This document shows, piece after piece, positions 2,283 through 19,260 of a stretch of DNA of 22,104 bases; position 1 is the first letter of the stretch; each line of letters opens with the position of its first letter. This DNA is from an uncultured Lachnospiraceae bacterium (GTDB taxonomy: Bacteria; Bacillota; Clostridia; Lachnospirales; Lachnospiraceae). A program made the translations under genes and the position numbers. The stretch is taken from contig CARRLP010000001.1 of NCBI GenBank assembly GCA_949055985.1, positions 1 through 22,104 of the forward strand, written 5' to 3'. The notes under the pieces are model-generated. The model saw nothing but the letters and a program-made list of their open reading frames with translations, ran no database searches and had not been told where the DNA came from.

Positions 2283-3395
2283 ATGGCAATGGTAGTACAG
2301 CACAACCTTACAGCAATGAACGCAAACCGTCAGTTAGGCGTTACAACAAGCGGACAGTCCAAATCAACAGAGAAATTATCCACAGGTTACAGAATTAACC
2401 GCGCAGGCGATGACGCAGCAGGATTAAAAATCTCTGAGAAAATGAGAAGCCAGATCCGCGGATTGAACAAAGCTTCTTCCAACGCGCAGGACGGCGTATC
2501 CCTTATCCAGACAGCAGAAGGCGCATTAAACGAAGCGCACAGCATCCTTCAGAGAATGAATGAGCTTGCAGTTCAGGGCGCAAACGACACAAACCAAGGC
2601 ATCGACCGTGACGCAATCAACCAGGAGTTAAGCGCGTTGACAGAAGAGCTTGACCGTATTTCTGAAACGACACAGTTCAATAAGCAGAGCCTGTTAGACG
2701 GAAGCTTCACAGGAAAGAACCTTCAGGTAGGCGCAAACCAGAACCAGAAGATTACAATCAACATTGCGGCAATGAACGCAGTGGCAATCGGAATCAAACC
2801 GACAGGCGTTGGCGGAACATCCGGATACCTGACAACAAATGAAGTTGTTAAGAATCAGAAGGTTGGCGTTGACAATTCTGCCGCTCTTAGAGGATCCATT
2901 GGTAAATTGGCAGCATGCAATGCTCAGGTAGCTCCAATCTACTCAGCAAACGCAGCAGGCAAACCATACTTCAAGACAGCAAATGGAACAATCACAACTG
3001 ATTCTTCTGTAGTAAGAGCATCTGTTGAGAACTTGGCAAAATGCGCTGCGCAGATCTTCAAAGTGGCAACAAAGGCTGCAACAACAGTCAGCACGCCAAA
3101 CGTAAGGGATTACCAGCAGGCAACAGGTACCATCACAATGGTACAGAACGCAATCAACAATGTATCCAGCCAGAGATCCGCTCTTGGCGCATTACAGAAC
3201 AGATTAGAGCACACGATTGCAAACTTAGACAACGTATCTGAGAATACACAGGCAGCAGAATCCCGTATCCGTGATACAGATATGGCTTCTGAAATGGTAG
3301 AATACAGCAAGAACAACATTCTTGCGCAGGCTGGACAGTCTATGTTAGCTCAGGCAAACCAGTCAAATCAGGGTGTATTATCATTGTTACAGTAA
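2283..3395 (+). CDS. fliC: flagellin (370 aa)
   Basis: The N-terminus MAMVVQHNLTAMNANRQLG and the C-terminus ...LAQANQSNQGVLSLLQ are canonical flagellin D0/D1 segments. The central region is Ser/Thr-rich and variable. GGAGG at 2269-2273 precedes ATG 2283. The ORF-track start at 2208 is an upstream TTG. Confidence 0.95.
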   Translation: MAMVVQHNLTAMNANRQLGVTTSGQSKSTEKLSTGYRINRAGDDAAGLKISEKMRSQIRGLNKASSNAQDGVSLIQTAEGALNEAHSILQRMNELAVQGANDTNQGIDRDAINQELSALTEELDRISETTQFNKQSLLDGSFTGKNLQVGANQNQKITINIAAMNAVAIGIKPTGVGGTSGYLTTNEVVKNQKVGVDNSAALRGSIGKLAACNAQVAPIYSANAAGKPYFKTANGTITTDSSVVRASVENLAKCAAQIFKVATKAATTVSTPNVRDYQQATGTITMVQNAINNVSSQRSALGALQNRLEHTIANLDNVSENTQAAESRIRDTDMASEMVEYSKNNILAQAGQSMLAQANQSNQGVLSLLQ

Positions 3396-3453: not shown

Positions 3454-3480
3454 TAAAGTTTTTGTATGTATGTCCGATAT
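3454..3480 (+). promoter_or_regulatory. second sigma-28 type promoter, a duplicate of the flagellin promoter
   Basis: TAAA (3454-3457), N15, tCCGATAT (3473-3480), followed by TATAAT as in the first copy. Confidence 0.55.
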
Positions 3481-3515
3481 ATACTATAATGAAATCAACA
3501 TTTTTAAAATCTATT

Positions 3516-3587
3516 GTAGCAAGGAAGCTGCGCCAAATTCAGGGAGGAAAATTCATGGCATTCAAAATCTGGAATTATTTTACCTAA
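3516..3587 (+). other. duplicated flagellin-type CsrA leader (hairpin AAGGAA plus SD CAGGGAGGA) driving a 10-codon ORF MAFKIWNYFT (3555-3587)
   Basis: Segment 3517-3558 aligns almost base for base with 2241-2286, including the 11-mer aaggaagctgc. ATG is at 3555 and TAA at 3585-3587. Downstream there is no similarity to flagellin. Confidence 0.5.
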
Positions 3588-3620
3588 GTATAATTGAACA
3601 TTGAATAAGAAAAATATAGG

Positions 3621-3648
3621 TTGACAAATGTCAGCTTTTTATTATAAT
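3621..3648 (+). promoter_or_regulatory. sigma-A consensus promoter
   Basis: TTGACA (3621-3626), 16 nt, TATAAT (3643-3648). Both hexamers are perfect. It lies upstream of the 3687 ORF. Confidence 0.5.
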
Positions 3649-3686: not shown

Positions 3687-4028
3687 ATGGAGGAATTTTC
3701 AAATTTATTGTGGCACAATATTGAAATTGTTCAGTGCATTTGTAATAAAATCGAGAATCAGGAAGCGTACATTGAGGATATTCGGGGATACCTTCCTTCT
3801 CTTAATCAAATGATTACATCAATATTTACAAATATGCAGCAAGGGCAAATTTCTTTGGAATTGAATCAAGGCTTTATTATTCAGGCGCTAAATGATATTC
3901 TATATGGAATAGAAAATGAAGATTCTGTATTTTTGCTTGATGTATTGCGATATGGGTTATTAGAAATTTATGGATACATAAGTAGTGAACTGCAAAGTGA
4001 GGGCTGTTATGAATCAGTTAATATATAA
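3687..4028 (+). CDS. hypothetical small protein (113 aa) upstream of maf and overlapping it
   Basis: ATG 3687 is preceded by GGAGGGG (3674-3680). The ORF-track start 3660 is a TTG. No motif recognised, including the FlaG VIRQIP motif. The 3' end overlaps the maf start by 20 nt. Confidence 0.5.
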   Translation: MEEFSNLLWHNIEIVQCICNKIENQEAYIEDIRGYLPSLNQMITSIFTNMQQGQISLELNQGFIIQALNDILYGIENEDSVFLLDVLRYGLLEIYGYISSELQSEGCYESVNI

Positions 4029-5907
4029 AAAAAATCTGGAGGCGTTAAATGCGAAATATCCTATATGGGCGGCTCTTATAGACGGGGTAAAACGTAAAAA
4101 ACGAAATTTCAATGTTGAAGCAGAGCAGAGTTTCATGGGAGAAACTATTTTGAAAGTAACTCAAGATGGGAAAATGCGTTACTTAAATGGAAAATATGCT
4201 CCTTCGGCAGTAGTGGAACGTTGGTTTGAAAAACAGGGAAAAATAGAAGAATACGCGCCAATTGTGATAATAGGCATTTCAAATGGAGAACATATACGAC
4301 AAATTATAGAACGCTCCCCAAAGACTTCTAATATTTTAATTTATGAGCCATCTTTTGAATTATTCCGCAGGGCGATGCAAGAAGTGGATTTAACATTTCT
4401 TTTTGAGATGGATATTCCGGTAGGGATTATTGTTGAGGGATTAAATGAAGATGAGTTAGAAGCTTTCCTTTATTTATTTATATCTTATGACAATATGGCT
4501 TTTCTTCGGTGGTATATTTCAGGGAATTATCAGGAATTATTTCCAAAAGAAGTGGAAGAATTTGTAGGACGTTTAAAGAATCATGTGTCACAAATCCATA
4601 TTGGCTGGAATACAAAATTACGTTATACAAATGTCAGGGCAGTAAATGTATTTGTCAATCTGCCATATTTAGCAGATGGATACAGCATTCGGGAATTGTA
4701 TGGAATGCTTCCGGAAGACGTTCCGGTTATTGTCGTTTCAGCAGGCCCATCTTTAAATAAAAACATTATGGAATTGAAAAAAGCAGTCGGGAAAGCCTGT
4801 ATTATTTCAACAGATACTGCGATAAAGCCTCTCTTAAATGCAGGAATCGTGCCGAATTTCTTTATTATTATAGATGGGTTAAAGCCGGAAGTGCTATTTC
4901 AACATAAGGATATATCTAAAGTTCCTATGGTGACTATGACGGCGGTTTCCACAGAGCCGATGTCATGCCATAAAGGGAAAAAATTCTTTTATGGCGCGGA
5001 GTCTGCATTTGAAGATGAACTTACGGGAGATATAAAGAGGAGCCGTGACGAAGACAGTGACAGAGTGATACCGTTTCTTGTAACTGGCGGTTCTGTTGCG
5101 ACTTCGGCATATGCGCTGGGTTTAAATATGGGAGCTAAGACAGTGATATTAGTGGGTCAGGATCTTGCAATGACCGGGAATAAAACGCATGCAGACGGTA
5201 CATTTCAGGCGCAGATGGATCAGATTGACAAAAATAGCGGCGAATACTTTGAAGTGGAAGCTATAGATGGCGGCAAGGTTTTGACGAGACTTGATTTTGA
5301 TATGTACCGTAAATGGTTTGAAGACCATTTTAAGCAGTGGAATCATGTCACAGTCGTAGATGCGACAGAAGGCGGAGCATTAATTCATGGAACGAAAGTA
5401 ATGACTTTAAAAAAGGCAGTTCAAAAATATTGTGTGCATGAATTTAATGTAAAGTGGCATACGGATCGCTGCAAAAAATTATTTCAAGATGAACAGCGGG
5501 AAGTTGTGTTGGATTATTTTGCAAATTCCCTAAAAAAATTACAGGAAGTGAAGAAAAAAGCGACAGAAGGGATTCGTTTCTATGAACGTCTGGAGAAGAT
5601 GGCGAAAAAAAGCTCGGTATCAGATCAGGAGCTTGGAAAGGCTTTGAAAAAAATCAAGAAATTAAATCATTATATGGAAACTGACTATATGGCGCGCACT
5701 GTTATGGATAGTTTAGATGGTCTAAATTTTACGTTAAGGCCGCTTGCTTATCAATTAAGAGAGGATAAACGGAGCGAGCTTTTAGATGTGGCTAGTCAGG
5801 GAAAAGTGCTACTTTACGGGGTGGCAGTTGCAGTAGATGAAGTATCTGAGATAGCGGAAAAGACGATTGTGCAGTACGCCAATTCCAACAGGACGAAACG
5901 GAAATAA
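4009..5907 (+). CDS. maf: motility accessory factor (Maf family, DUF115/MptE-like), a putative flagellin glycosyltransferase
   Basis: The N-terminus MNQLIYKKNLEALNAKYP is typical of Maf proteins. A GPSL motif (VVSAGPSLNKN) precedes STDTAIKPLLNAGIVPNFFIIIDG. The protein is about 630 aa and adjacent to flagellin. ATG 4009 has GAGGG upstream. Track start 3985 is GTG. Confidence 0.7.
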   Translation: MNQLIYKKNLEALNAKYPIWAALIDGVKRKKRNFNVEAEQSFMGETILKVTQDGKMRYLNGKYAPSAVVERWFEKQGKIEEYAPIVIIGISNGEHIRQIIERSPKTSNILIYEPSFELFRRAMQEVDLTFLFEMDIPVGIIVEGLNEDELEAFLYLFISYDNMAFLRWYISGNYQELFPKEVEEFVGRLKNHVSQIHIGWNTKLRYTNVRAVNVFVNLPYLADGYSIRELYGMLPEDVPVIVVSAGPSLNKNIMELKKAVGKACIISTDTAIKPLLNAGIVPNFFIIIDGLKPEVLFQHKDISKVPMVTMTAVSTEPMSCHKGKKFFYGAESAFEDELTGDIKRSRDEDSDRVIPFLVTGGSVATSAYALGLNMGAKTVILVGQDLAMTGNKTHADGTFQAQMDQIDKNSGEYFEVEAIDGGKVLTRLDFDMYRKWFEDHFKQWNHVTVVDATEGGALIHGTKVMTLKKAVQKYCVHEFNVKWHTDRCKKLFQDEQREVVLDYFANSLKKLQEVKKKATEGIRFYERLEKMAKKSSVSDQELGKALKKIKKLNHYMETDYMARTVMDSLDGLNFTLRPLAYQLREDKRSELLDVASQGKVLLYGVAVAVDEVSEIAEKTIVQYANSNRTKRK

Positions 5908-5987: not shown

Positions 5988-6971
5988 TTATTTTAGGTAC
6001 TTGAACCAATCTTCCGTGGCATCGACAATGGTATCCGGCGTCCATACAGGAGCTTTCCGCCAATAGTCAATGTTTTCAAGGACTTTGCTAACGCCATCTT
6101 CAAATGAGATTTTAGGCTCCCATCCCAGAACATCATGAATTTTTGAAGTGTCAGCAAATGTGCAGTCGGGTTCTCCGGGTCTTTTTGGGATATTTGTGAT
6201 TTCACCGCCCAATAGTTCACACAGCCTGTTTATAGAGTAGGTTCCTCCGCTTCCAACGTTGAATGTGTCTTGTTTGATATCCGACATAGCGGCTGTATAA
6301 AAAGCGTCGACAATATCTGTTACATATGTAAAGTCCCTTGTTTGAGTTCCATCTCCTACAACGGTAAATGGTTTGTTGGCTAGTTTTTGGGCTAAAAATA
6401 CGCCAAATACAGCCCCATAAGTGCCGGAAGTCCTCGATCTTGTGCCATATACGTTGAATAGTCTCAAAGTAATCACAGGAAGACCGTAGACTTGCCCCCA
6501 GTGCAAGATGGTTTCTTCCCCTAATCTTTTTGTAAGGGCATAAGGATACTGTGGCCTGATTTCGGCTGTTTCTCTGGTAGGGTATTGGTCAGGAATGCCA
6601 TAACAGGAAGATGAAGCGGCATAAAGCAGCTTTTTGATATTTGTGTTTTTCGCGCATTCCACTACATTAAACGTTCCTAGGACATTAGAGGAGTAATAAT
6701 CTTGAGGCCTCTGAATAGATGGAACGATGTCGGCTAATGCCGCAAAGTGGAAAATGTAGTCCACATCTTTAAAAATAGGCTGGATTTCCTCCTTATTTCG
6801 AATGTCCATTTGATAGATGCTGAGATTTTTGTGGCCTTTGAGGTGATCTAGGTTTTCTAATCTTCCAGTGCTTAAATTATCAATTACGCGGACGTCATGC
6901 CCTTCAGATAAAAGCCTATCCACCATATGGGAGCCAATAAATCCGCACCCGCCTGTAACCAGTGACGTCAT
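5988..6971 (-). CDS. NAD-dependent epimerase/dehydratase (extended SDR), candidate nucleotide-heptose epimerase or modifying enzyme
   Basis: GxxGxxG motif TGGCGFIGSHMV at the N-terminus. A YxxxK motif (PYALTK) is present. ATG at 6971 forms an ATGA overlap with the gmhB stop. Confidence 0.75.
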   Translation of the reverse strand: MTSLVTGGCGFIGSHMVDRLLSEGHDVRVIDNLSTGRLENLDHLKGHKNLSIYQMDIRNKEEIQPIFKDVDYIFHFAALADIVPSIQRPQDYYSSNVLGTFNVVECAKNTNIKKLLYAASSSCYGIPDQYPTRETAEIRPQYPYALTKRLGEETILHWGQVYGLPVITLRLFNVYGTRSRTSGTYGAVFGVFLAQKLANKPFTVVGDGTQTRDFTYVTDIVDAFYTAAMSDIKQDTFNVGSGGTYSINRLCELLGGEITNIPKRPGEPDCTFADTSKIHDVLGWEPKISFEDGVSKVLENIDYWRKAPVWTPDTIVDATEDWFKYLK

Positions 6972-7531
6972 ATACTGTTTCCTTCCTTTCTTTCTAATAT
7001 TTTAATAAAGTCCCTCAAATCTTTCAATGTATAATCGGGAACTACTATTTCTTCTAGGCGCGCAACTCCATAACCGGAATCAAGCAATACCGTTTTTAAG
7101 TTCGCATTTTCGCCAAGCCGTATATCACATGCGCGATCTCCAACTACATAAGAGCCATTCATAGTTATTTGAAAATCTGAACAGGCTTTTTCTAACATAC
7201 CTATAGCGGGTTTGCGGCAATTACAATTAAAGGCATAGCCTTGTATCACGCCTTTTTGATGATGTGGGCAGTAATACACAGCATCAACTCCTGTCTCTTG
7301 TATGAGATATTGATTCATGGAGAGAAGCGTTTCTTCCGTGAAATAACCGCGCGCAATCCCGCTTTGGTTAGAAACGACAATCGCATAGTAACCATAAGTA
7401 TGTATTTTTTCTATACAGCTTTTGGAGTATGGGAAAATTTCCAGCTCATTTGTGGAACGGATATAGCTTTTTTCTTTAGTAAGAACGCCATCTCTATCAA
7501 GGAAAATAGCGGGTTTTGCTTTCTTTTTCAA
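6968..7531 (-). CDS. gmhB: D-glycero-D-manno-heptose 1,7-bisphosphate phosphatase (HAD family)
   Basis: The FLDRDGVL HAD motif I and CPHH...CNCRKP are both typical of GmhB. The apparent TTG start at 7531 overlaps the gmhA TGA stop by 2 nt (TTGA). There is no in-frame ATG upstream of the FLDRDG motif. Confidence 0.8.
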   Translation of the reverse strand: MKKKAKPAIFLDRDGVLTKEKSYIRSTNELEIFPYSKSCIEKIHTYGYYAIVVSNQSGIARGYFTEETLLSMNQYLIQETGVDAVYYCPHHQKGVIQGYAFNCNCRKPAIGMLEKACSDFQITMNGSYVVGDRACDIRLGENANLKTVLLDSGYGVARLEEIVVPDYTLKDLRDFIKILERKEGNSI

Positions 7532-8109
7532 ATGGATGCCCCTTCACTTTCTAATATCATATCTACTATTTGTTGTAAAATTAAATTATGGGCTGATTCC
7601 ACAATGCCATATTTACTGCAAGGAGTATAGACGTTAATATCGCCTAATTGCCTTGCCTTATTGTCAGGGCTAAAACCTGTAAATGTAATGACTTTTGCAT
7701 TTTTTGCTTTGGCTGTTTGAATTGCATTGATAATATTTTGTGAATTGCCTGAACTGCTGATTGCCACGACTAAATCATCTTTTTTTACAAGAAAATCCAT
7801 TGGTTTTGAAAATATATATTCATAACCATAATCGTTGCCAATGCAGGTTGTCAAAGCGTTATCATACAGGTTATATGCGTTCATTTTTCCGTTTTTCATA
7901 AAATCTGCCGCCATATGGCTGGCAATGGCAGCGCTGCCGCCGTTTCCTACGAAAAAGAGATTTGAGCAGAAACGTTTATGTTCAAGAAAAACATCAAAAA
8001 GCATTTGGATGCCTTCTGTGTAGGTTTCGTGGTATGAACCGTCTTTTTTTTGTATTTTCGTTGATTCTAATGTTTGTATAAATGTGTTAATATAATTATT
8101 TTGCAGCAT
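7528..8109 (-). CDS. gmhA: phosphoheptose (sedoheptulose-7-phosphate) isomerase, SIS domain
   Basis: FVGNGGSAAIASHMAADF is the SIS nucleotide-sugar isomerase motif. The protein is 193 aa. It is the first gene of the leftward cassette. Confidence 0.8.
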   Translation of the reverse strand: MLQNNYINTFIQTLESTKIQKKDGSYHETYTEGIQMLFDVFLEHKRFCSNLFFVGNGGSAAIASHMAADFMKNGKMNAYNLYDNALTTCIGNDYGYEYIFSKPMDFLVKKDDLVVAISSSGNSQNIINAIQTAKAKNAKVITFTGFSPDNKARQLGDINVYTPCSKYGIVESAHNLILQQIVDMILESEGASI

Positions 8110-8272
8110 AATAATCGCTTCTTTCTGATAATTATTTATAATGTATTAGTATATCACAGGAGTATAGCATGTAACAAGAATTTTTTGTAATGATTCCTGT
8201 TATTGATTTCTGTTATAAATAATAGAAATGGTTAGAATGAAATAATTCGTAAATGATTGTATTTAATATGTA

Positions 8273-8300
8273 TAAAGTTAAATTAAGGATAAGCCGATAA
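8273..8300 (+). promoter_or_regulatory. candidate sigma-28 type promoter for the rightward sugar-biosynthesis operon
   Basis: TAAA (8273-8276), N16, GCCGATAA (8293-8300). The spacer is 1 nt longer than consensus and there is one mismatch in the -10. Confidence 0.35.
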
Positions 8301-8369
8301 AAAGAATAAGAGTTAAATTGCGTTTTCTATCAGCATGGAAGCTGTATTTTATTCAGGGAGGAAGAAGAA

Positions 8370-8483
8370 ATGACGAAAAGGAAAGACATGCAGCGAAAAA
8401 TTGCATGGGGGGGGGAAAATCAGAATCTACTAAAAAGTGGAAAAAAATTCAAACTTTATATGGATTATCTCAAGAGACGTTAG
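8370..8483 (+). CDS. leader small ORF (37 aa) containing a G9 tract, a candidate phase-variable upstream peptide
   Basis: GGGAGG (8355-8360) lies 9 nt before ATG 8370. The SD context ttcagggagga echoes the duplicated flagellin leader. Codons tgg ggg ggg gaa span the G9 at 8407-8415. A +1 G fuses it to the long frame ending at 8605. Confidence 0.3.
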   Translation: MTKRKDMQRKIAWGGENQNLLKSGKKFKLYMDYLKRR

Positions 8484-8719
8484 GGGCAATTTTTTTGTTG
8501 CCTTTTTTTTGGTGTCTGCCGTTTGATCCGGTTATGGCTTGTAAAGGATATAAGTGTGTTGGGATAAGAATGGATAAGAATTGTTGGAAGGACGCCTATG
8601 TTTGAAACAAAGACAGCATGGGAAACGCAGTGAATATACTACAATTCTTTTTTTGCGTTTTATAACATTTTTTGCAACAGAAGATAATATGCCAAAATAG
8701 CTGGGAAGAAGGAATTAAA

Positions 8720-10300
8720 ATGAATTTAGAAGCTGAATTTGAACGGTTAAAAACATGTTCCCGTATTTTGATTTGGGGCGGCGGTTATCATACGAAAGAG
8801 GCGCTAAGGTTTTATAAATCTTTTTTTAGGGAACGGGACATACAGATTGTAGATAAGAATAAGGCAGGCCAAAGCATAGAAGGATATAAAATTATTGCTT
8901 CAGATGAAGCAGATTATTCGATTGATTATGTTGTGATTATGTCGTCAATATACCATGATGAAATTGAATATGCTTTGCGGAACAGACATGGTTATCAAGG
9001 GGCAGTGATAGGTTTATATGCGTTTCGGAGAGTTCTTTTAAAACTGGATTCATATGAAGAATGTATTGGGCATATGGAAGATTTTGTGTCTCATATGGAA
9101 CAAGGCATAGCAAGTTATTCTTACGACTATATATTTCAAGAAAACTATAGCGTATATAAAAAAATAAGGCTATATGCGTTTTGGGCGTCTTCTATTGGTG
9201 AATCAGTCCGGTATTTATCGGCATATTATGAAACTGTTTTTAAGGATAAGGCAGAAGATGAATACTGCCTGTTAATTCCCTATATAAAAGGGAATGATTT
9301 CGCGAATGGGCAATTTATAGAGGTTGTTTCCCGTACAGTTCCTATGGTTACATATTGCAACTGTCATTTTTGGGAGTATGCGGTGAAAAAGTACAGAGAG
9401 CGTTTTGATTTGACGTCTTATAATGAATTTAACGGTATTTTAGTGGATGCATATAATCAATTTGATGAACGGATTATAAACAGGACGTTTTGTGATAAAA
9501 AGTTTCCTTTGATTGCCTATACGCCGGAAGAACGTAAGATGGCGGAATATAAATTAAGGCAAATGGGCGTTTTTGGAGATTTCGTGTGTATATTTGCAAG
9601 AGATAACCACTATTTGCAGCATCAGTATGGACAGGCTTATGGAATTAATGAAATAAGAAATATGGATATCAATTCTTTTAAATCTGCAGTGGATTATTTG
9701 GAGGGACAGGGAGTAAAGGCAGTCCGCATGGGAAAAGTTGTCAACGGGCCGGTCAATCTGCCAAACTGCATAGATTATGCGGCGGATTTCCATAGCGACT
9801 TTATGGATTTATATTTATGCGGTAATTGCAAGTTTTATGCAGGGAGTTTGTCTGGGATTGTTGCGCTTGCCCAGCTTCAAAGCGCGCCTGTGGTTTTGCT
9901 CGGGGTGGTTCAGCTGGGGATTCACAATTCAATACCATATAGGAGCAGAGATATTTACGTCCCAAAGAAAATATATGACAAAAATAAGAAACGTTTTTTA
10001 AATTTTACGGAAATATGGGATGCGGAAATGGCCGCTAAGGACAAAATATCAAAATATTATGGGGAACACGGGCTTGAGTTTATAGAGCTTGGCAAAGAAG
10101 AAATAAAAGAAGCGATAGTGGAGATGAACGATAAATTAGATGGAGTGTATCAGGAAGACGAACAGGAAAAAGAACTTCAAAAGAAATATCATTTGCTGTT
10201 GGAAAACTGGATATTAGAGAATGGATACCAGTATTCTTATTTCTTGCATATTGACATAAGCGGCAGTTTTATTAAAAAGAATACATTTATGCTTGCATAG
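8720..10300 (+). CDS. hypothetical 526-aa protein, first gene of the rightward operon; possibly a sugar-transferase-like protein
   Basis: ATG 8720 is preceded by GGAAGAAGGAA. The ORF-track start 8672 is a TTG. No confident motif. The Rossmann-like N-terminus ILIWGGGYHTKEAL...IQIVDKN is suggestive only. Confidence 0.6.
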   Translation: MNLEAEFERLKTCSRILIWGGGYHTKEALRFYKSFFRERDIQIVDKNKAGQSIEGYKIIASDEADYSIDYVVIMSSIYHDEIEYALRNRHGYQGAVIGLYAFRRVLLKLDSYEECIGHMEDFVSHMEQGIASYSYDYIFQENYSVYKKIRLYAFWASSIGESVRYLSAYYETVFKDKAEDEYCLLIPYIKGNDFANGQFIEVVSRTVPMVTYCNCHFWEYAVKKYRERFDLTSYNEFNGILVDAYNQFDERIINRTFCDKKFPLIAYTPEERKMAEYKLRQMGVFGDFVCIFARDNHYLQHQYGQAYGINEIRNMDINSFKSAVDYLEGQGVKAVRMGKVVNGPVNLPNCIDYAADFHSDFMDLYLCGNCKFYAGSLSGIVALAQLQSAPVVLLGVVQLGIHNSIPYRSRDIYVPKKIYDKNKKRFLNFTEIWDAEMAAKDKISKYYGEHGLEFIELGKEEIKEAIVEMNDKLDGVYQEDEQEKELQKKYHLLLENWILENGYQYSYFLHIDISGSFIKKNTFMLA

Positions 10301-10349
10301 CATTCTGGCGGGAACAAAATTTGATGAATAAACAGGGGGAATTTGAATT

Positions 10350-11411
10350 ATGGCAGATAAAATCCGAATGGATTCGCACAAATTAATTTATCATCCAGAG
10401 AGGGTTGCGGCTTGGAAGCGTGGAGAAAATATATATCCGATTGAATTGGAAATAGGATTAACAAACGCCTGTAATCATAGATGCATTTTTTGCGCAGTGG
10501 ATTATACAGGTTACAAACCGACAATGCTTGAGGCGGATCTTTTAAAATTAAGGATCAGTGAGTTTGCAGAAAAAGGAGTGAAATCTATTATATATGCCGG
10601 AGAAGGGGAACCGCTTTTAAATAAAGACGCGGCAGATATTATTAATTTCACGAAAAAAAGCGGAATAGATGCGGCGTTATCTACAAATGGAGCATTGCTT
10701 ACGCCGGAAGCATCGAGAGACTGTCTGGCTTCTTTGACATGGATTCGTTTTAGTACGGCCGCAATTAGAGAAAAAACGTATGAGAAAATCCATCAATGCC
10801 GGAAAGGAGAGCTTAAAACTGTTTTAAATAATATTCAGGAAGCAGTCCGGACGAAAAAAGATCAAGGGCTCAAAACGACGATTGGCGCGCAATTATTGCT
10901 TCTGCCGGATAATAAAGATGAAGTTGTGGAGATGGCGAAGGAAATGAAAAAAATAGGAGTGGATTATTTTACGGTAAAACCATTTTCGCAGCATCCGTCA
11001 AGCGGCAATATCTTGCAAGTGGATTATCAGGAATTACTGGAATTGGAACGGGAATTAGAAGGAATTGGAACGGAAGAATTTAAAATATATTTCCGGGCGC
11101 ATTCTATGAAGAAATTGGCATGTGAGCGCGGTTATAAGCAATGTCTGGCGCTGCCATTTATGGTATACATTGATGCGAAGGGGAATTTATGGCCCTGTAT
11201 TGTGTTTATGGGGCAGGAACAGTTTAGTTATGGAAATTTATATAATGCATCATTTGAAGAAATATGGGAAGGAGAGCGGAGGAAGAAGCTGATTCAAGAG
11301 TTTTCCCAGATGGATTTAGAGAAAAATTGCAGGGAGTTGTGCAGGCTGGATGAAATGAATAAGTATCTCAATGATTTGAGAAATCCCGGACTTCATGTAA
11401 ATTTTATATAG
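10350..11411 (+). CDS. radical SAM protein (paralog A) with a Cys-rich C-terminal region
   Basis: CNHRCIFC is a CxxxCxxC motif about 40 aa from the N-terminus. Further Cys residues lie in the C-terminal third, possibly for an auxiliary cluster. The protein ends ...HVNFI. It is a clear paralog of the 13218 gene. Confidence 0.75.
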   Translation: MADKIRMDSHKLIYHPERVAAWKRGENIYPIELEIGLTNACNHRCIFCAVDYTGYKPTMLEADLLKLRISEFAEKGVKSIIYAGEGEPLLNKDAADIINFTKKSGIDAALSTNGALLTPEASRDCLASLTWIRFSTAAIREKTYEKIHQCRKGELKTVLNNIQEAVRTKKDQGLKTTIGAQLLLLPDNKDEVVEMAKEMKKIGVDYFTVKPFSQHPSSGNILQVDYQELLELERELEGIGTEEFKIYFRAHSMKKLACERGYKQCLALPFMVYIDAKGNLWPCIVFMGQEQFSYGNLYNASFEEIWEGERRKKLIQEFSQMDLEKNCRELCRLDEMNKYLNDLRNPGLHVNFI

Positions 11412-11461
11412 TATCCGTTTATTCCAATAGGAGAATAAATTTTAAGAGTTAGGAGAGAACG

Positions 11462-12307
11462 ATGGATTTAAAAGAGCGGGCGGCTGAAATAAGAAAAATG
11501 ATTTTTAAAATGGCATACCGGGGAGGGAGCGGGCATTTGGCATCGGCTTTTTCGATTGTGGAAATTTTAACGGTTTTATATTTTGGGGGAATTTTAAATA
11601 TAGATCCGAAAAATCCGGATTGGGCGCAAAGGGATAAATTGATATTAAGCAAGGGACACGCGAGTTTGGCATTATATAGTGTATTGGGTATGAAGGGATT
11701 TTTTCCACAAAAAGAGTTACAGACTTTTTGCAAGCCGGGTTCAGAATTCGGAGGAGAACCCAGAATGGGGCATATAACGGGCGTAGAGGCGACTACAGGC
11801 TCGCTTGGGCATGGGCTTTCATTTGGCGTGGGGATTGCAATGGCGCATAAGATGAATGGGGAAGCGAACAGGACATATGTGATAATTGGAGATGGCGAAT
11901 GCCAAGAAGGAAGCATATGGGAAGCTGTAATAGCGGCGCCGCACCACAAACTAGACAATTTGACAGTGATTTTAGATAATAACAGGCTACAGGCAATGGG
12001 GAAAGTGGAGGATATTCTTGCGTTGCGCCGCCTGCGGGAAAGCTGGGAAAATTTCGGCTGGGGCATCGCAACAGTAGATGGGCACGATATAGAAAAGCTT
12101 TGTAAATGTCTGGATAAGGACAGACAAACGGAGGATGGCAGACCGCATTTAATTTGTGCGGATACAGTGAAAGGAAAAGGCGTTTCCTTTATGGAAAGCG
12201 AGCCCATCTGGCATTATCGGATGCCGAATGAACAGGAATTAGAAATTGTATTGCAAGATTTGGGCATGACAAGAGAGGAGCTGATTCAATGCGAAATGAA
12301 TATTTAG
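11462..12307 (+). CDS. transketolase, N-terminal (TPP-binding) subunit
   Basis: GHITGVEATTGSLGHGLSFGVGIAMA and VIIGDGECQEGSIWEA are the transketolase TPP-binding motifs. The protein is 281 aa. AGGAGA precedes the ATG. Confidence 0.85.
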   Translation: MDLKERAAEIRKMIFKMAYRGGSGHLASAFSIVEILTVLYFGGILNIDPKNPDWAQRDKLILSKGHASLALYSVLGMKGFFPQKELQTFCKPGSEFGGEPRMGHITGVEATTGSLGHGLSFGVGIAMAHKMNGEANRTYVIIGDGECQEGSIWEAVIAAPHHKLDNLTVILDNNRLQAMGKVEDILALRRLRESWENFGWGIATVDGHDIEKLCKCLDKDRQTEDGRPHLICADTVKGKGVSFMESEPIWHYRMPNEQELEIVLQDLGMTREELIQCEMNI

Positions 12308-13212
12308 CGGAACTATATCATCTTGCAAAAAATGATCGGAATGTGCTTTCTTTAGTGTCCGATAATGGCATGATTGTATATGATGAATTTCGGGCGGCTT
12401 TTCCAGAGCAATATTTTAATTTTGGCATTTCAGAATGCCATATGATTGCGGCGGCGGCAGGAATGGCGACATGTGGGAAAATTCCTTTTGCATATACAAT
12501 TAGTTCATTTTTGGCGTACCGGGCATACGAATTTTTAAGGCTGGACGTATGTCTGGAAAATTTGAATGTAAAGATAGTTGGAATAGGCACAGGCGTATCT
12601 TATGGCTATTTAGGCCCTACGCATCATACGACAGAGGATTTGGCTCTTTTGCGATCACTGCCTAATTTGACTATATTTTCTCCGGCAAGCCCAATGGAAG
12701 CGCGCGAGGCGGTACGGGCTGCATATCAAATAAAGGGACCTGTCTATATCCGGCTTGGCAGCAGCGGGGAACCGGAGGTTCATACGGAAAAATTTTCTTT
12801 TGAAATTGGGAAAGGGCAGGTCATATTTGACGGGCATGACATTGCGCTGATAACTTCAGGGGCAATCACGGCTGAAGCGAAAATAGCGGCGGAGCGGCTT
12901 ATGGAAGAAGGAATATCAGTTAAGCTGATTAGTATGCACACGATAAAGCCTTTTGATGAGGATCTTATAGCAAAAACGGCTGAAAAGGTTTCTAAATTAG
13001 CTGTAATAGAAGAACATAATATTATCGGCGGGTTAGGAAGCGCAGTGGCTGAGACATTAGCAGACAGGCAGATTGCAATTCCTTTTTATAGAATTGGGTT
13101 ATATGATCAATTTGCAAAAGGCTATGGAACGGGACAACAGGTACGGATGCAAAATAGGCTGGACAGTGAAGGGATTTATCAACAAATCAGCCAATATGTA
13201 AAGGAAGGATGA
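12289..13212 (+). CDS. transketolase, C-terminal (pyrimidine-binding) subunit
   Basis: FNFGISECHMIAAAAGMATCG is the transketolase Pyr-domain motif. The protein is 307 aa. It overlaps the N-subunit gene by 19 nt. GAGGAG precedes the ATG. Confidence 0.85.
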   Translation: MRNEYLAELYHLAKNDRNVLSLVSDNGMIVYDEFRAAFPEQYFNFGISECHMIAAAAGMATCGKIPFAYTISSFLAYRAYEFLRLDVCLENLNVKIVGIGTGVSYGYLGPTHHTTEDLALLRSLPNLTIFSPASPMEAREAVRAAYQIKGPVYIRLGSSGEPEVHTEKFSFEIGKGQVIFDGHDIALITSGAITAEAKIAAERLMEEGISVKLISMHTIKPFDEDLIAKTAEKVSKLAVIEEHNIIGGLGSAVAETLADRQIAIPFYRIGLYDQFAKGYGTGQQVRMQNRLDSEGIYQQISQYVKEG

Positions 13213-13217
13213 CAAAA

Positions 13218-14327
13218 ATGGAGTCAGAAAAATTAATATTAGACGGCAGTAAAGTATTATGGCACAAAGATAGAATAGAGCAATGGAAAAGGGGGGAGCG
13301 TTTTGCGCCTGTTACGATTGATTGCGCGCTGACTACGAAATGCAGTTACCGCTGTGTGTATTGTTATGGAAAAATGCAGTGCATAAACCAGTCGGATAAT
13401 CTTGACGAAGAAACAATTTTACGCTTTTTAGAGGATGCGGCGGAAATAGGAGTAAAAGCGGTTAGTTTTGTAAGCGATGGAGAAAGCACATGTAACCCAC
13501 ATTTGAAAAAAGCGGTTTTACATGGCAAGAGCCTTGGATTAGATATGGCTCTTGGCACAAATGGCTTTTTGTTAAAAGATGAGGAATTAGAGGAAATTTT
13601 GCCGGCGCTTACTTATCTGCGTTTTAATATATCGGCTGGGGAGAGGGAACGATATGCCGAAATTCATGGCTGCGCCTTAAAATGCTATGATAAAGTAATT
13701 GAAACGATGAAAAAAGCGGTAGATATTAGGGAGAAGAAAGATCTGGCGGTTACAATTGGAATGCAAATGGTTTTAATGCCGGATTTTGCAGATCAGATTC
13801 TTCCGCTTACAAAGTTAGGCAGAGAGATTGGCGTGGATTATCTCGTGATTAAACATTGTAGTGATGATGAGGAAGGCACGCTTGGCGTAAATTACGAAAA
13901 ATATGATGCCGTGATTCCGGTTTTAAAGGAAGCGGAAACTTATTCTACGGATAAGTATCAGGTTTCGGCAAAATGGTCAAAGATTTTAAGCCATGGGAAG
14001 AAAAGTTACTGTAAGTGTTTTGGAGCCCCCTTTATTCTTCAAATGTCGGGTACGGGCCTTGTGGCTCCTTGTGGAATGTTTTTCAATGAGAAATACAGTA
14101 AATACCATATTGGAAATATTAAGGAAAAGAGATTTAAAGAGATATTTGAAAGCGACAGGTATTGGGAAGTTATGAAAATGATAACAGACGAAACTTTTGA
14201 TCCAAACCGCGATTGCGGTACGCTCTGTCTTCAGCATAAAACAAATGAGGCATTGTGGAAGATCTATCAAACAGGGACAATTCCAAAGAGTCCGGAAATT
14301 GAACCGAATCATATTAATTTTATATAA
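13218..14327 (+). CDS. radical SAM protein (paralog B) with a Cys-rich C-terminal region
   Basis: CSYRCVYC is a CxxxCxxC motif. Its N-terminus and C-terminus (...HINFI) align with paralog A. ATG 13218 has AAGGAAGG 9 nt upstream. The track start 13209 abuts that RBS, so 13218 is preferred. Confidence 0.75.
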   Translation: MESEKLILDGSKVLWHKDRIEQWKRGERFAPVTIDCALTTKCSYRCVYCYGKMQCINQSDNLDEETILRFLEDAAEIGVKAVSFVSDGESTCNPHLKKAVLHGKSLGLDMALGTNGFLLKDEELEEILPALTYLRFNISAGERERYAEIHGCALKCYDKVIETMKKAVDIREKKDLAVTIGMQMVLMPDFADQILPLTKLGREIGVDYLVIKHCSDDEEGTLGVNYEKYDAVIPVLKEAETYSTDKYQVSAKWSKILSHGKKSYCKCFGAPFILQMSGTGLVAPCGMFFNEKYSKYHIGNIKEKRFKEIFESDRYWEVMKMITDETFDPNRDCGTLCLQHKTNEALWKIYQTGTIPKSPEIEPNHINFI

Positions 14328-14366
14328 ATTTCAGAAATCTGGAAAAATAAGCATGGAGGCTGAAAA

Positions 14367-15896
14367 ATGGCACTTGTTGTGACAAAAGCGGAATTTAGGA
14401 ATATAAGAAAGGAATTGCGGGCGGAAGGGAAGAAAGTGGTTCTCTGCCATGGCGTATTTGATTTAGTGCATCCCGGCCATATCATTCATTTTGAAGAAGC
14501 AAAAAAGATGGGGGACGTTTTAGTGGCGTCTGTCACGGCGGCAAAATATGTGAGAAAAGGTCCGGATAGGCCGTATTTTGGAGATGAGATGCGTCTGAAA
14601 TTTTTATCTTCGATTGCGTATATTGATTATATTCTTTTGTCAGAGGGCTTTACTGTAGATGATATTATTGAAGCGGCGGAGCCGGACTTGTATGTAAAAG
14701 GCTCGGAGTATCAGGCGCAAGAAGATGACATTACCGGAAAGATTGCCGGAGAAATAGAGCTGGTCCGTAAACATGGAGGGGAAATTGCTTATACAGGCGG
14801 GCAGGTGTTTAGTTCAACGAAACTAATCAACCATGCTTTTCCATCACTTTCTGAGGAAGTGAAACAATTTATGAAATCATTTTCAGATAAGTATAGTTTA
14901 TCTGAAATCAGAGCGCTGGCGGAAAAAATTTCGGGCTTTAAGATAGCGGTAATTGGAGACGTAATTATAGATGAATATATTTATTGCAATGTACAGGGGT
15001 TAATGTCGAAAGACAGGGGATATTCTGCCCGTTATAGATATGTGGAGCAGTATTTAGGCGGTTCGTTAGCCGTGGCGAGGCATATTGCCTCATTTTGTGA
15101 CGACGTCACTCTTTTGAGCGTTGTAGGGAAAGAGGAGGCGGTACATAGCCGGATGTTAGACGAACTTGGCGATAAGATGAGGATAGACGTAACGTTTAGC
15201 GATGTTTTTGAAACCATTATAAAAACACGGTACGTTTCCATGAATGAAAAACGGGAAGAGCTTGATAAAATTTTCGCTGTAAATAACCTTCCTGTATATA
15301 TGCGCATTGATAAACCTGCATTAGATAAGTTTAAAGAAAAAATAAAAGAGAAAATAGAACAGTGTGACGTGGTTATTTTGTGTGATTTTGGGCATGGGCT
15401 GATAGATGAAGAAGTGATGGATTTGATTCAGTCTAAGGCGAAGTTTTTAGCGTTGAACTGCCAGACTAATTCATCGAATTATGGAAAAAATTTAATTACA
15501 AAATATAAACGGGCAGATGTATTTGCGATTGACCAGAAAGAATTGGGGCTGGCATTTGCGAATTACCGTTTAGATGAGCAAGAGCTTCTTCAGAAGTTAG
15601 AAAAACATTTGGACTGCCATGGGTGGCTGACACAGGGATCCCAAGGGGCAGTTTCGATTGAAGATGGAGAAATAAAACATTGTCCGGCATTTGTTTTAAA
15701 AGTGAAAGACACCATTGGAGCAGGGGATGCGTTCTTTTCCATTGCAAGCTTATTTGCGGCAGCAGGCGCTTCCATGGAGATGGGAACATTTATGGGAAAT
15801 ATTGCGGGGGCATTGGCGACAAATATCGTAGGAAACAAAAAAGGCATTGATAAAGTAGATGTACTGAAGTACGCTTCTACTTTACTTAATATATGA
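14367..15896 (+). CDS. bifunctional heptose-phosphate nucleotidyltransferase / sugar kinase (HldE/RfaE-like) with reversed domain order
   Basis: The N-terminal 140 aa carry a cytidylyltransferase-like HxGH motif (GVFDLVHPGHIIHF). The C-terminal 330 aa form a PfkB-family kinase with a DTIGAGDAF anion-hole motif. In E. coli HldE the kinase is N-terminal. Confidence 0.7.
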   Translation: MALVVTKAEFRNIRKELRAEGKKVVLCHGVFDLVHPGHIIHFEEAKKMGDVLVASVTAAKYVRKGPDRPYFGDEMRLKFLSSIAYIDYILLSEGFTVDDIIEAAEPDLYVKGSEYQAQEDDITGKIAGEIELVRKHGGEIAYTGGQVFSSTKLINHAFPSLSEEVKQFMKSFSDKYSLSEIRALAEKISGFKIAVIGDVIIDEYIYCNVQGLMSKDRGYSARYRYVEQYLGGSLAVARHIASFCDDVTLLSVVGKEEAVHSRMLDELGDKMRIDVTFSDVFETIIKTRYVSMNEKREELDKIFAVNNLPVYMRIDKPALDKFKEKIKEKIEQCDVVILCDFGHGLIDEEVMDLIQSKAKFLALNCQTNSSNYGKNLITKYKRADVFAIDQKELGLAFANYRLDEQELLQKLEKHLDCHGWLTQGSQGAVSIEDGEIKHCPAFVLKVKDTIGAGDAFFSIASLFAAAGASMEMGTFMGNIAGALATNIVGNKKGIDKVDVLKYASTLLNI

Positions 15897-15934
15897 TGAT
15901 TCTAAAGATATATTTATAAAATGGAGGGTAAGAA

Positions 15935-17575
15935 ATGAAGATTTTGTTGGTGGTTCCGCAATACTATAGCCGGAAAGAACGATATTATCAAATGCCATTA
16001 GGCTTAGCGTATGTGAATGCAGCTCTGCGGGAAGCAAATTTAGATGTGCAATGCCTGAATATGAACCATATTGAAGCAGAAGACGCCTATTCAGTTTTAG
16101 CTGAACGGGTAGTAAATTCCAATATTGACGTTGTCCTTTGCGGCGGAATAAGCCCGCTTTGGAAAACGATTGAAAAAGTGTTTGATACAGTTAAAAGGGC
16201 AAAAGCTTCCATAATTACTGTGGGGGGGGGTGGAGCCTTTACGTCGGAGCCTCTTATTTCAGCGGAACTTCTTGAAGTAGATTATGCTGTAATTGGAGAA
16301 GGGGAGATTACAGATGTAGAGCTTATTCAAACGTTGATGGCGAATCAGAATGTAAGCAATGTAAAAGGAATTGTATATAAAACGCCGGACGGATATAGGC
16401 AGACGGCTCCGAGGGAAGAAATTGCCGATGTGGATTCCATTCCATTTCCATGCTATGAGGGGTTTGACATGGATTTATATTTAGAAAATCAAATGGTGAG
16501 CGATGAATATTATTCTTTTTATTCGGACAAGCCGAGAATTATGCCGATGATTTTAGGCAGGTCATGCCCTTATCAATGCAAATTTTGTTTTCACCCTATA
16601 GGAAATAAATACAGGGTGCGAAGTCTGGATAATTTTTTTATGGAACTGGATCAATGGAAGAATAAGTATGCTCCAACCTGTATTTTGATATTAGATGAAT
16701 TATTTAGCGCAAGCGTTGAAAGAGTGTATGAGTTTTGTGAAAGAATAAAAGGATATGAGATAAAATGGATTGTCCAAATGCGGGTGGATATTATCACGAA
16801 AGAGTTATTGCAGACAATGCGGGACGCCGGATGCCTCAGCATCAGTTATGGACTTGAAAGTTTTAGCCCTGCAGTTTTGAAAAATATGAGAAAACATATC
16901 TCTTTAGCAGACATAGAAAACGCTTTAAAATTGACTTATGAAGCAAAAATAGACATTCAGGGCAATTTTATTTTTGGAGACGAGTTAGAAAATGAGCATA
17001 CGATATATGAAACATTGCGGTTTTGGTTTCAGCATCCAGAATATAAAATTAATTTGGGGTGGATAGAGACATATCCGGGATGCGGCTATTATCAGGAATT
17101 ATCAAAAAATTGGAGCGTTGAGGAGAAAAAAGCATTTTTAGAAATGAGTGAATGGCTGACAAATTTAACAAAGATGCCAGATGAAGAATATGGGAAATAT
17201 AAAGTTGTGATTCAACTGCTTACATTTTATTATAACCCAGATTGTGTGAAAGAAAAAGAGACGCGGACAGACGAAAATGGCGATGGGATTATTGAAGCGA
17301 AGTGCGTGCATTGCGGTTCGGTAAATCGGTGGGCAGGAGTTAAAAAATATCTGCTAAATCAATCGTATTTTAAATTATGCTGCCGGAAATGCAATCATAG
17401 GAATGTGATTTACAGCAGGAAAGAAAGGTTAAAAAATTGGGATTTAATTCTGCCATTATGTGAGAAAATGGCTTTGGCAACAAAGGAAGATGAATTTATT
17501 AAAGCGGTAAACGCTTTATATGAGACGTATATGGTGACGCATGACCCAGAAAATCCATTTCCTGTTTTGTTTTAG
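15935..17575 (+). CDS. B12-binding-domain radical SAM enzyme (class B) with a C-terminal Cys4 zinc-ribbon-like tail
   Basis: The N-terminus ILLVVPQ...MPLGLAYVNAAL...VVLCGG is a B12-binding-like domain. The radical SAM motif is CPYQCKFC. The C-terminus has CVHCGS...CCRKCNH. A G9 tract lies at 16222-16230, encoding GGGG. Confidence 0.75.
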   Translation: MKILLVVPQYYSRKERYYQMPLGLAYVNAALREANLDVQCLNMNHIEAEDAYSVLAERVVNSNIDVVLCGGISPLWKTIEKVFDTVKRAKASIITVGGGGAFTSEPLISAELLEVDYAVIGEGEITDVELIQTLMANQNVSNVKGIVYKTPDGYRQTAPREEIADVDSIPFPCYEGFDMDLYLENQMVSDEYYSFYSDKPRIMPMILGRSCPYQCKFCFHPIGNKYRVRSLDNFFMELDQWKNKYAPTCILILDELFSASVERVYEFCERIKGYEIKWIVQMRVDIITKELLQTMRDAGCLSISYGLESFSPAVLKNMRKHISLADIENALKLTYEAKIDIQGNFIFGDELENEHTIYETLRFWFQHPEYKINLGWIETYPGCGYYQELSKNWSVEEKKAFLEMSEWLTNLTKMPDEEYGKYKVVIQLLTFYYNPDCVKEKETRTDENGDGIIEAKCVHCGSVNRWAGVKKYLLNQSYFKLCCRKCNHRNVIYSRKERLKNWDLILPLCEKMALATKEDEFIKAVNALYETYMVTHDPENPFPVLF

Positions 17576-17592: not shown

Positions 17593-18288
17593 TTAAATTG
17601 TGACATTAAAGTATTGTTGGGCCTTACAGTATTTTTTCTGCCTGTTTCTGATTAAGACACTGCCGTCAGGGTTACGCAGCACAACGGAATCATCGGAGAC
17701 CGGCTGTCCATATACAAACGCATCTACTCCAATGGATACACGGTTTCCGATTGGTTCATTGCCTATAATTTTAGCTCCGGCGGCTAAGTAGAGCCCTTTT
17801 CCGAGTTTTGGGACAGTTTCGCCGACAGGGCTTTCACCGGTATTGATGGTGACATTTTGGCCTATTACAAGAAAATCACTGTAAGCTGCATTGCCAATTA
17901 CGCTTCCTACCGGATGTGTAAGGAAGAATATTTCCGGCAGTTTGCCTTTGTAAGAGATAAAAAAACTATGTAAAGTTTTATTCAAGTAAATTAATTTGTC
18001 ACAGACAGATTTGTTTGCGGAAAGCTCCCACAGTGAGTTAGCCCAAAAATATAAAAACTGGGCATACTGGTCAGAATGCAGATGCGAGAAAAATGTTTCG
18101 CCTTGGTTATCTGAATATGCGGAATTTTTAATAAAACGGAAGCAATGCTCTGTCCGTTCTAAGGCGCGTTCAAAAGCGGCGTCAACGTCGCTGCCTTTTA
18201 GAGTATGAGTATTGCGATCCGGAAAAAAAAGCTCTAACTGATGCAGCGTATATGTTTGAAGTTCTTGTTTCGGTAATGATAGGTTCAT
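17593..18288 (-). CDS. hexapeptide-repeat (left-handed beta-helix) acetyltransferase, serine-acetyltransferase-like, a probable sugar O/N-acetyltransferase
   Basis: The C-terminal half has hexapeptide repeats (VGSVIGNAAYSDFLVIGQNVTINTG...). ATG at 18288 overlaps the upstream TGA as ATGA, with GGAAG in front. The longer track ORF start at 18405 falls inside the GT2 gene. Confidence 0.6.
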   Translation of the reverse strand: MNLSLPKQELQTYTLHQLELFFPDRNTHTLKGSDVDAAFERALERTEHCFRFIKNSAYSDNQGETFFSHLHSDQYAQFLYFWANSLWELSANKSVCDKLIYLNKTLHSFFISYKGKLPEIFFLTHPVGSVIGNAAYSDFLVIGQNVTINTGESPVGETVPKLGKGLYLAAGAKIIGNEPIGNRVSIGVDAFVYGQPVSDDSVVLRNPDGSVLIRNRQKKYCKAQQYFNVTI

Positions 18289-19256: not shown

Positions 19257-19260
19257 GATC

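Follow-up and report, generated by a model that had tools for sequence, protein, structure and literature searches.

Poly-G phase variation of flagellar glycans is a textbook phenomenon in Campylobacter, and the literature searched held no description of poly-G flagellin-glycan variation in gut Clostridia or Lachnospiraceae-type commensals. Here we analyze a stretch of 22,104 nucleotides (nt) from an uncultured Lachnospiraceae bacterium (GenBank assembly GCA_949055985.1, contig CARRLP010000001.1, positions 1 to 22,104; hereafter, the window), a flagellin glycosylation island of a low-GC (39%) Firmicute in which a run of nine G residues (G9, positions 8407–8415) lies inside a short leader open reading frame (ORF) upstream of a glycosyltransferase, radical SAM and heptose operon. 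We tentatively propose that this is a phase-variable leader ORF in which the position of the stop codon gates read-through of a weak terminator into the flagellin-glycan operon, a neutral and vestigial tract being nearly as likely.

Several described systems share parts of this arrangement. The flagellar glycosylation island of Campylobacter jejuni, whose tracts have been followed by ribosome profiling (Ribo-seq) and sequencing (PMC11955535), carries the same fast-changing G8–G11 homopolymers in maf and other genes, with several tracts per flagellin-glycan locus. Maf-type (MptE-like) and sugar-modifying genes are present in the window as well, and a second G9 tract at 16222–16230 works in the same way, but the host is a Firmicute rather than an epsilonproteobacterium, and the tract at 8407–8415 lies in an orphan leader ORF of 37 or 78 codons upstream of an operon instead of in an enzyme gene. 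In the tlpB-hp0102 leader of Helicobacter pylori, a variable G-run (6–16 G) tunes co-transcribed genes that include a surface-glycan glycosyltransferase (PMC8295292), so that there, as in the window, a G-repeat sits in the leader of a glycosyltransferase operon. The H. pylori repeat, however, is untranslated and exerts graded control by pairing with a C/U-rich loop of the trans-acting small RNA RepG, whereas the repeat described here lies in a predicted translated frame with a strong Shine-Dalgarno (SD) sequence, and its proposed readout is the position of the stop codon relative to a terminator. Within the class Clostridia, the flgB leader of Clostridioides difficile likewise makes a flagellar operon phase-variable, through a switch that shows itself as premature termination of transcription (PMC12360218). 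There the switch consists of an invertible DNA element with Rho as its reader, whereas here a homopolymer is found with a candidate Rho-independent hairpin in a C-poor leader.

Two further families of leaders resemble the locus. The hag and fliC leaders of Bacillus subtilis and C. difficile, which are controlled by sigma-28 and by the CsrA-FliW-flagellin switch, have the same promoter type, a GGA in a hairpin loop and a GGA over the SD sequence, the two sites of C. difficile fliC being BS1 (TGACAAGGATGT) and BS2 (CTAAGGAGGG) (PMC8523840). In the window, by contrast, such a module heads a short orphan ORF and a glycan operon and not a flagellin gene, its CsrA sites are predicted, and the hairpin in this copy, the third of three, has only 4 base pairs and reads AUGGAA instead of AAGGAA. 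Leader-peptide attenuators also place a short ORF and an intrinsic terminator before structural genes, with a possible alternative pairing of ORF and terminator (here predicted), but they respond to ribosome stalling on an amino acid or antibiotic, whereas here a heritable frameshift, by shifting the stop codon, would provide the input. Unlike the Campylobacter, tlpB-hp0102 and flgB elements, the tract is located inside a predicted translated leader ORF set against a putative intrinsic terminator. The literature searched contained no description of a leader-ORF tract placed in this way, with a stop moved by frameshift, and a "phase-variable attenuator" as a readout of simple sequence repeats was not found described.

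Reading Frames of the Leader ORF

The earlier note on this DNA, made from the sequence alone, had placed the G9 tract inside a 37-amino-acid (aa) ORF that would be extended to 78 aa by a tenth G and cut to 20 aa by the loss of one. Direct reading of the sequence confirms these frames, which are laid out as follows.

8370–8483, + strand: leader ORF in the G9 state, read from the sequence (ATG at 8370, 37 codons, stop TAG at 8481–8483)
8407–8415, + strand: poly-G tract, hypermutable, G9 in the window
8431–8433, + strand: stop TAA for the G8 and G11 states (products of 20 or 21 aa), 49 nt upstream of a terminator-like hairpin
8603–8605, + strand: stop TGA for the G7, G10 and G13 states (products of 77–79 aa), 114 nt upstream of the next gene

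The tract occupies codons 13–15 of the leader ORF. The G9 state encodes the 37-aa product MTKRKDMQRKIAWGGENQNLLKSGKKFKLYMDYLKRR, and in the G10 state the leader frame fuses with the frame that ends at 8603–8605. The strong SD sequence that had been reported for the ORF (GGGAGG, 8356–8361) stands, with a spacer to the ATG of 8 nt in place of the 9 nt first given, a trivial correction; likewise, the idea that tract length sets the distance that a ribosome can travel on the leader is borne out by the stop positions in each frame.

A second idea of the earlier note, that the locus could produce a phase-variable small membrane peptide, is not supported. The supposed hydrophobic segment of the 78-aa product (LGAIFLLPFFWCLPF) is the terminator stem and T-run read as codons; it is a stretch of 15 residues with three prolines, short of the approximately 18-residue helix of a small membrane protein, in a product rich in tryptophan and cysteine. 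Among 5.8 billion clustered proteins, the 78-aa product matched only copies of itself, and a full HMMER scan of 1.84 billion representatives with the 95-aa frame, an ORF with a TTG start that is called in the G9 state, returned only itself and a spurious repeat protein. No Pfam match to the leader ORF frames was obtained, even at an E-value of 10, and blastn and tblastn detected no similarity between the leader ORF and genes in the window or in related loci. With no homologue of either frame in these two very large libraries, it is unlikely that the G10 state yields a functional 78-aa membrane peptide; for a 37-aa peptide, which is possible, there is no support. Codon scores were uninformative, those of both frames falling between the coding (in-frame) and non-coding (off-frame) distributions. 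The longest stop-free stretch on the + strand spans 107 codons and exceeds those of shuffled sequences (p 0.037 over six frames), and it could be a decayed coding sequence. A relic 5′ end of a C2185-like_N or methyltransferase gene, as found in relatives, was also considered as the source of the leader ORF: a 23-nt resemblance to a related locus (L015) near its poly-G tract has an E-value of 1.3, there is no Pfam signal at E 10 and the DNA alignment is unconvincing. Such an origin is at most a possibility.

Length Variation of the Tract

The window contains two runs of at least 8 G or C, at 8407–8415 and 16222–16230, and the two runs of at least 9 compare with approximately 0.03 expected from base composition. 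Exact pattern scans for the tract flanks in GTDB species genomes and Joint Genome Institute (JGI) metagenome contigs gave 0 matches, and for this reason tract lengths were surveyed in public assemblies by exact look-up of the ORF product predicted for each tract state, a procedure that works because different tract lengths make gene finders call different ORFs. The counts, which rest on consensus assemblies, were:

G7, 77-aa ORF: 3 contigs
G9, 37-aa ORF: 4 contigs
G9, 95-aa TTG-frame ORF: 120 contigs
G10, 78-aa ORF: 186 contigs
G12, 96-aa ORF: 1 contig
G13, 79-aa ORF: 2 contigs

Gene callers predicted the 37-aa leader ORF itself on just 4–5 public contigs. The downstream glycosyltransferase, at 100% protein identity, occurs in 787 index blocks of the public assembly collection; 286 of about this number hold the G9-state ORF and 348 the G10-state ORF, leaving about a fifth for contig ends and for states without a callable ORF, such as G11. 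Gene finders called no ORF specific to the G8 or G11 state, and the frequency of these states is bounded at roughly 20% of index blocks or less.

Among the loci that were fetched, G7, G9, G10, G11 and G13 occur within flanks of approximately 560 nt that show 0–1 differences from the window, and one contig (L001) is identical to the window across a 631-nt alignment except for G11 in place of G9. The length heterogeneity for which the earlier note had proposed a read-level check is therefore present at the DNA level in public assemblies, in otherwise identical flanks. The T8 run at 8503–8510, which serves as a control for homopolymer error, is constant in 14 of the 14 fetched loci. Three haplotypes can be told apart by substitutions elsewhere in the ORF, and each is found as both G9 and G10, indicating that switching has been recurrent. 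The tract hence displays the features of a simple-sequence contingency locus that can be assessed by sequence: an overlong homopolymer, length variation and recurrent changes. On this basis we take it to be a genuine mutational switch, and an effect on the operon is plausible.

Homopolymers are prone to error, and the sequence around the tract is scrambled on some low-coverage contigs (P0001, P0002, P0016), which raises the question of whether sequencing or assembly artefacts could have produced the variation from a true tract of a single length. We regard this as very improbable, because of the range of lengths, from 7 to 13, because these occur on long contigs with perfect flanks and approximately 10–23x coverage (judged from contig names), and because the neighbouring T8 is constant, a changed T-run being seen on only 9 contigs. 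The second G9 tract, moreover, shows a different distribution, dominated by the in-frame length, as expected from selection and not from error. The ORF variant behind those 9 contigs (P0004, 65 aa) implies an altered T8 run in a G10-state background.

Other roles were considered for the tract itself. As a promoter spacer it is preceded by TTGCAT (8401–8406), but direct reading finds no acceptable −10 element at 16–18 nt, and a spacer role was rejected. A role on the minus strand is unlikely: the divergent gmhA-like gene begins 298 nt away, with promoter-like sites at 8148–8177, and no minus-strand ORF of at least 60 aa lies across 8110–8719.

A Flagellin-Type Leader Module

The leader ORF is preceded by a set of elements that recur elsewhere in the window.

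8273–8300, + strand: sigma-28 (SigD/FliA)-type promoter by consensus match (TAAA, 16 nt, GCCGATAA)
8331–8344, + strand: predicted small hairpin, CAGC-AUGGAA-GCUG, with GGA in the loop; counterpart of the CsrA site BS1 of hag/fliC leaders
8352–8363, + strand: TTCAGGGAGGAA, holding the SD GGGAGG (8356–8361) with embedded GGA motifs; predicted counterpart of the CsrA site BS2

The promoter reads TAAAGTT-N15-CGATA at 8273–8299, and the pattern TAAAGTT-N10-16-CGATA has 3 matches in the window against 0.03 expected, all of them with an N14-15 spacing; the other two lie upstream of the flagellin gene (2115–2140) and upstream of a second leader copy (3454–3479). The 37 nt ahead of the ATG are the third copy of a repeat family (D1) whose other members are found before the flagellin gene (2241–2277) and at 3515–3551, and the leader motif GGAAGCTG-N-TTCARGGAGGAA likewise has 3 matches in the window against 0 expected. 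Each leader copy consists of a small hairpin with an (A/U)GGAA loop, followed approximately 20 nt on by TTCA(A/G)GGAGGAA, the SD sequence; by folding, the hairpin stem has 4 base pairs in copy 3, against 6 in the other two. Positions 3540–3551 share the SD context TTCAGGGAGGAA, and the GGA-containing SD stretch at 8356–8363 reads GGGAGGAA. The first GGA of each of the two candidate CsrA sites (8337 and 8358) starts 21 nt from the other, and the layout of a CsrA-type leader (a sigma-28-type promoter, with a loop GGA and an SD GGA within about 10–60 nt) is thus found in the sequence; neither csrA nor fliW is present in the window.

The sigma-28-like promoter and the shared SD context had both been pointed out in the earlier note, and they hold here as one of three matching promoter sites and as part of a three-copy leader motif, respectively. 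What had been overlooked is that promoter, GGA hairpin and SD sequence together make up a third copy of a candidate flagellin-control module. From the three-copy motif and promoter it follows, at the level of sequence, that the flagellin transcriptional control region has been duplicated in front of the leader ORF, and the translational control region, of the CsrA type, probably with it.

The second leader copy (3454–3648) is followed by only a 10-codon ORF (MAFKIWNYFT), which starts with MA- like flagellin, and it resembles what would remain of a flagellin gene copy after its deletion. A perfect TTGACA-16-TATAAT promoter (3621–3648), overlapping a small hairpin and T-run, lies there upstream of the Maf operon.

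A Terminator-Like Hairpin at the Stop of the Leader ORF

A terminator scan identified an element that had also escaped the earlier note, in which a hairpin and U-run begin at the stop codon of the G9 frame.

8483–8510, + strand only: terminator-like element with stem GGGGCAAU/GUUGCCUU (8483–8490 and 8497–8504), a 6-nt loop and T8 (8503–8510)
8376–8405, + strand: candidate anti-terminator strand in ORF codons 3–12, complementary to 8485–8511

The hairpin has a predicted stability of −9.4 kcal/mol for its core and of −12.6 kcal/mol (z −2.7) with its A/U extension, far weaker than the flagellin terminator (−23.3). The three frames stand in different relations to it: the G9 stop (TAG 8481–8483) overlaps the base of the hairpin, the G10 frame runs through hairpin and U-run, and the G8/G11 frame ends 49 nt upstream. 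A terminator at the G9-frame stop provides a concrete mechanism for the notion that tract length matters through how far ribosomes travel. Promoter, leader motif, SD and ATG, tract and terminator-like hairpin are all on the + strand and face the operon, as the proposed gating would have it.

The candidate anti-terminator strand is predicted to form a duplex with 8485–8511 of −21.0 kcal/mol, against −9.4 for the terminator hairpin, although 5% of shuffled versions of the upstream segment do so equally stably; together, the alternative pairings would constitute an attenuator layout, albeit a marginal one. The leader RNA contains 11% C and 24% G, and such C-poor RNA would be a poor Rho substrate, which argues for a readout by the intrinsic hairpin and against one by Rho polarity. 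Rfam, searched with the entire window at E-values up to 1, gave no match at or near the leader.

The element at 8482–8513 is 78% identical over 32 nt to minus-strand positions 300–331, the terminator region of a glycosyltransferase-like gene (469–1998). This likeness may reflect a shared terminator type or a chance similarity of T-rich sequences.

Poly-G Tracts in the Operon and in Related Genomes

The second G9 tract of the window (16222–16230) covers codons 96–99 of the B12-binding radical SAM gene (ORF 15935–17575), the last gene of the operon, and is in frame in the window. In public assemblies, the intact 546-aa form is present on approximately 300 contigs, truncated forms of 112–115 aa (G7, G8, G10 and G11) on approximately 170, and matching C-terminal fragments of 413 aa on approximately 100. 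To judge by these products, it is a classic coding ON/OFF contingency tract.

In relatives with a 64–69% identical glycosyltransferase, G9–G10 tracts occur in the 5′ coding portions of three kinds of gene (Methyltransf_21, radical SAM/SPASM and the glycosyltransferase homologue):

L014–L016, positions 1885–1895 and 6291–6300: tracts of three related loci
L018, positions 2934–2943: tract of a fourth related locus

In the radical SAM gene the tract measures G9 in L016 and G10 in L014 and L015, with a corresponding split of the gene. The leader module and the leader ORF are absent from all of these relatives, and protein-guided locus searches of GTDB species genomes and JGI metagenome contigs found only distant relatives (29–63% identity) with unrelated upstream regions. 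Taken with the ON/OFF tract of the operon, the tracts of the relatives indicate that this clade uses poly-G to vary flagellin glycans, the placement in a leader ORF being, as far as the compared sequences go, peculiar to the lineage of the window.

With two hypermutable tracts in one flagellin-glycan locus, a downstream glycosyltransferase present in several hundred public index blocks and similar tracts in related species, the data suggest that commensal Firmicutes vary their flagellin surface stochastically, which bears on host immune recognition of flagella and on flagellotropic phages.

A Model for Tract-Dependent Read-Through

In the proposed gating model, transcription would start near 8307, from a sigma-28-type promoter taken to be active in the cell, and ribosomes would load at the strong SD sequence whenever it is not blocked, as it might be by CsrA bound to the leader. 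The point at which ribosomes stop, in relation to the weak terminator, would then depend on tract length. With G8 or G11 they would stop 49 nt before it, leaving the hairpin free to form, and most transcripts would end near 8510 if the terminator is functional, with low expression of the operon. In the G9 and G12 states they would stop exactly at the foot of the hairpin, and expression would be intermediate or low. In the G7, G10 and G13 states, ribosomes would cross hairpin and U-run on their way to 8605 and block the hairpin, translation in this way affecting termination, and RNA polymerase would read into the glycosyltransferase/radical-SAM/heptose operon, giving high expression to the extent that the operon depends on the leader promoter. 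Flagellin-glycan synthesis would in consequence be set stochastically, in a heritable but reversible manner.

Such a setting would come on top of control by sigma-28, and possibly by CsrA/FliW, to which flagellin itself is subject. Sigma-28, perhaps together with CsrA/FliW, would govern when leader RNA is produced and translated, and the tract would decide what that translation achieves. The fuller proposition that three inputs converge on one weak terminator, namely the state of flagellar assembly (by way of sigma-28), flagellin homeostasis (by way of CsrA/FliW, which would gate translation of the leader) and a stochastic tract switch, is more doubtful than the gating itself. If the tract does gate the terminator through the stop of the leader ORF, it would represent a novel route by which a simple repeat controls an entire operon, linked in this case to the flagellin checkpoint, and natural variants from G7 to G13 already exist.

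A number of observations weigh against the gating. With 8 pairs, of which 3 are G-U, and −9.4 kcal/mol, the hairpin is predicted to be weak and could be a poor terminator whatever the tract length; the case for the anti-terminator pairing is marginal (p about 0.05), and folds of the whole leader are no more stable than those of shuffled sequences (z 0.0 and −1.1). Sigma-70-like hexamers at 8659–8688 and 8670–8698 suggest that the operon may have its own promoter; the sigma-70-like matches between 8513 and 8719 are weak and no more than chance. B. subtilis RNA polymerase has been reported to outrun ribosomes, which would make ribosome-dependent control of intrinsic terminators less common in Firmicutes. 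The leader module lacks conservation, since the sequence upstream of the closest relatives of the downstream gene (63–69% identity) is unrelated, and the second leader copy (3454–3585) looks vestigial, as the third could be too. Finally, lengths centred on G9 and G10 are also expected from the mutational equilibrium of neutral poly-G tracts, as in Campylobacter. The weakness of the hairpin, the possibility of an independent promoter, the vestigial second copy and a length distribution compatible with neutrality are reasons why we advance the gating model only tentatively.

Alternative Explanations

The neutral reading, to which we grant a somewhat smaller but still substantial share, holds that module, ATG and poly-G are remnants, either of an earlier phase-variable gene or of a duplication of the flagellin control region, and that the tract slips without effect on fitness while transcription of the operon originates elsewhere. 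The locus does contain vestigial copies of the module, given that leader copy 2 heads only its 10-codon ORF and then the perfect TTGACA-16-TATAAT; poly-G in the relatives always lies in the 5′ coding parts of real enzyme genes, a possible source of such a relic; the leader ORF is an orphan; the lengths center on G9–G10 with no clear frame preference; and the 107-codon stop-free stretch fits a decayed coding sequence. Yet the searches by blastn and tblastn against related loci and in protein libraries, described above, link the ORF to no gene, the tract has been kept uninterrupted at G7–G13 on at least three haplotypes, where unselected tracts would be expected to gain interruptions, and stop codon, hairpin and U-run are precisely arranged around the frames.

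Two explanations that involve neither gating nor neutrality seem to us improbable. The leader ORF could be a self-contained sigma-28-dependent gene with its own terminator, in which poly-G turns a basic 37-aa peptide (G9) or the 78-aa product (G10) ON and OFF. The G9 state does have the full layout of a gene, with promoter, SD, ATG, 37 codons and stop followed directly by the terminator, the codon scores of both frames fall between the in-frame and off-frame distributions, and gene finders call the 78-aa form more often than any other in public assemblies (186 contigs). It is difficult to reconcile with such a protein, however, that neither library holds a homologue outside the near-clonal lineage and Pfam no match, that the 78-aa frame contains the terminator and owes its hydrophobic part to translated T-runs with three prolines in a tryptophan- and cysteine-rich product, and that neither state is preferred in the population, which would be odd for an ON/OFF protein. 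Still less probable is a role at the RNA level that does not involve translation, whether as a short sigma-28-dependent RNA (approximately 8307–8510) that titrates CsrA or as a G-repeat targeted by a C/U-rich small RNA, with tract length tuning the binding. The two CsrA-type sites have hag-like spacing, the terminator would yield an RNA of approximately 205 nt, a leader G-repeat upstream of a glycosyltransferase has a precedent (PMC8295292), and the C. jejuni flaA mRNA is described as a dual-function CsrA-binding RNA (PMC4894983). Against this, beyond the two sites, GGA motifs show no significant enrichment (7 observed, 4.3 expected, p 0.10), on which ground a CsrA sponge RNA was rejected, and the combination seen with RepG, an untranslated G-repeat and a C/U-rich partner, was not found within the 22 kb: the window has no run of at least 6 C able to pair with the tract and the leader matches no Rfam family, and the tract lies inside an ORF with a strong SD rather than in an untranslated stretch.

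Genomic Setting

The leader ORF and its tract lie within a 610-nt gap that separates divergent gene sets, the principal genes of the island being:

2283–3395: flagellin gene
3985–5907: Maf/MptE-like gene
5988–8109, minus strand: SIS/GmhA-like, HAD phosphatase and epimerase genes
8720–17575, + strand: operon encoding a glycosyltransferase, two radical SAM/SPASM enzymes, a split transketolase, an HldE-like kinase/nucleotidyltransferase and a B12-binding radical SAM enzyme
8720–10300, + strand: first gene of the operon, named TIGR04372-family glycosyltransferase by NCBI

Identical proteins are labelled "MAG: Eubacterium sp." by NCBI. Downstream of the operon, the longest-ORF coordinates of two minus-strand genes (17593–18405 and 18285–19361) share 120 nt; public gene calls for the region 17593–19361 on another contig (L011) are shorter, at 231 and 323 aa, and the true starts are probably downstream of the listed ones.

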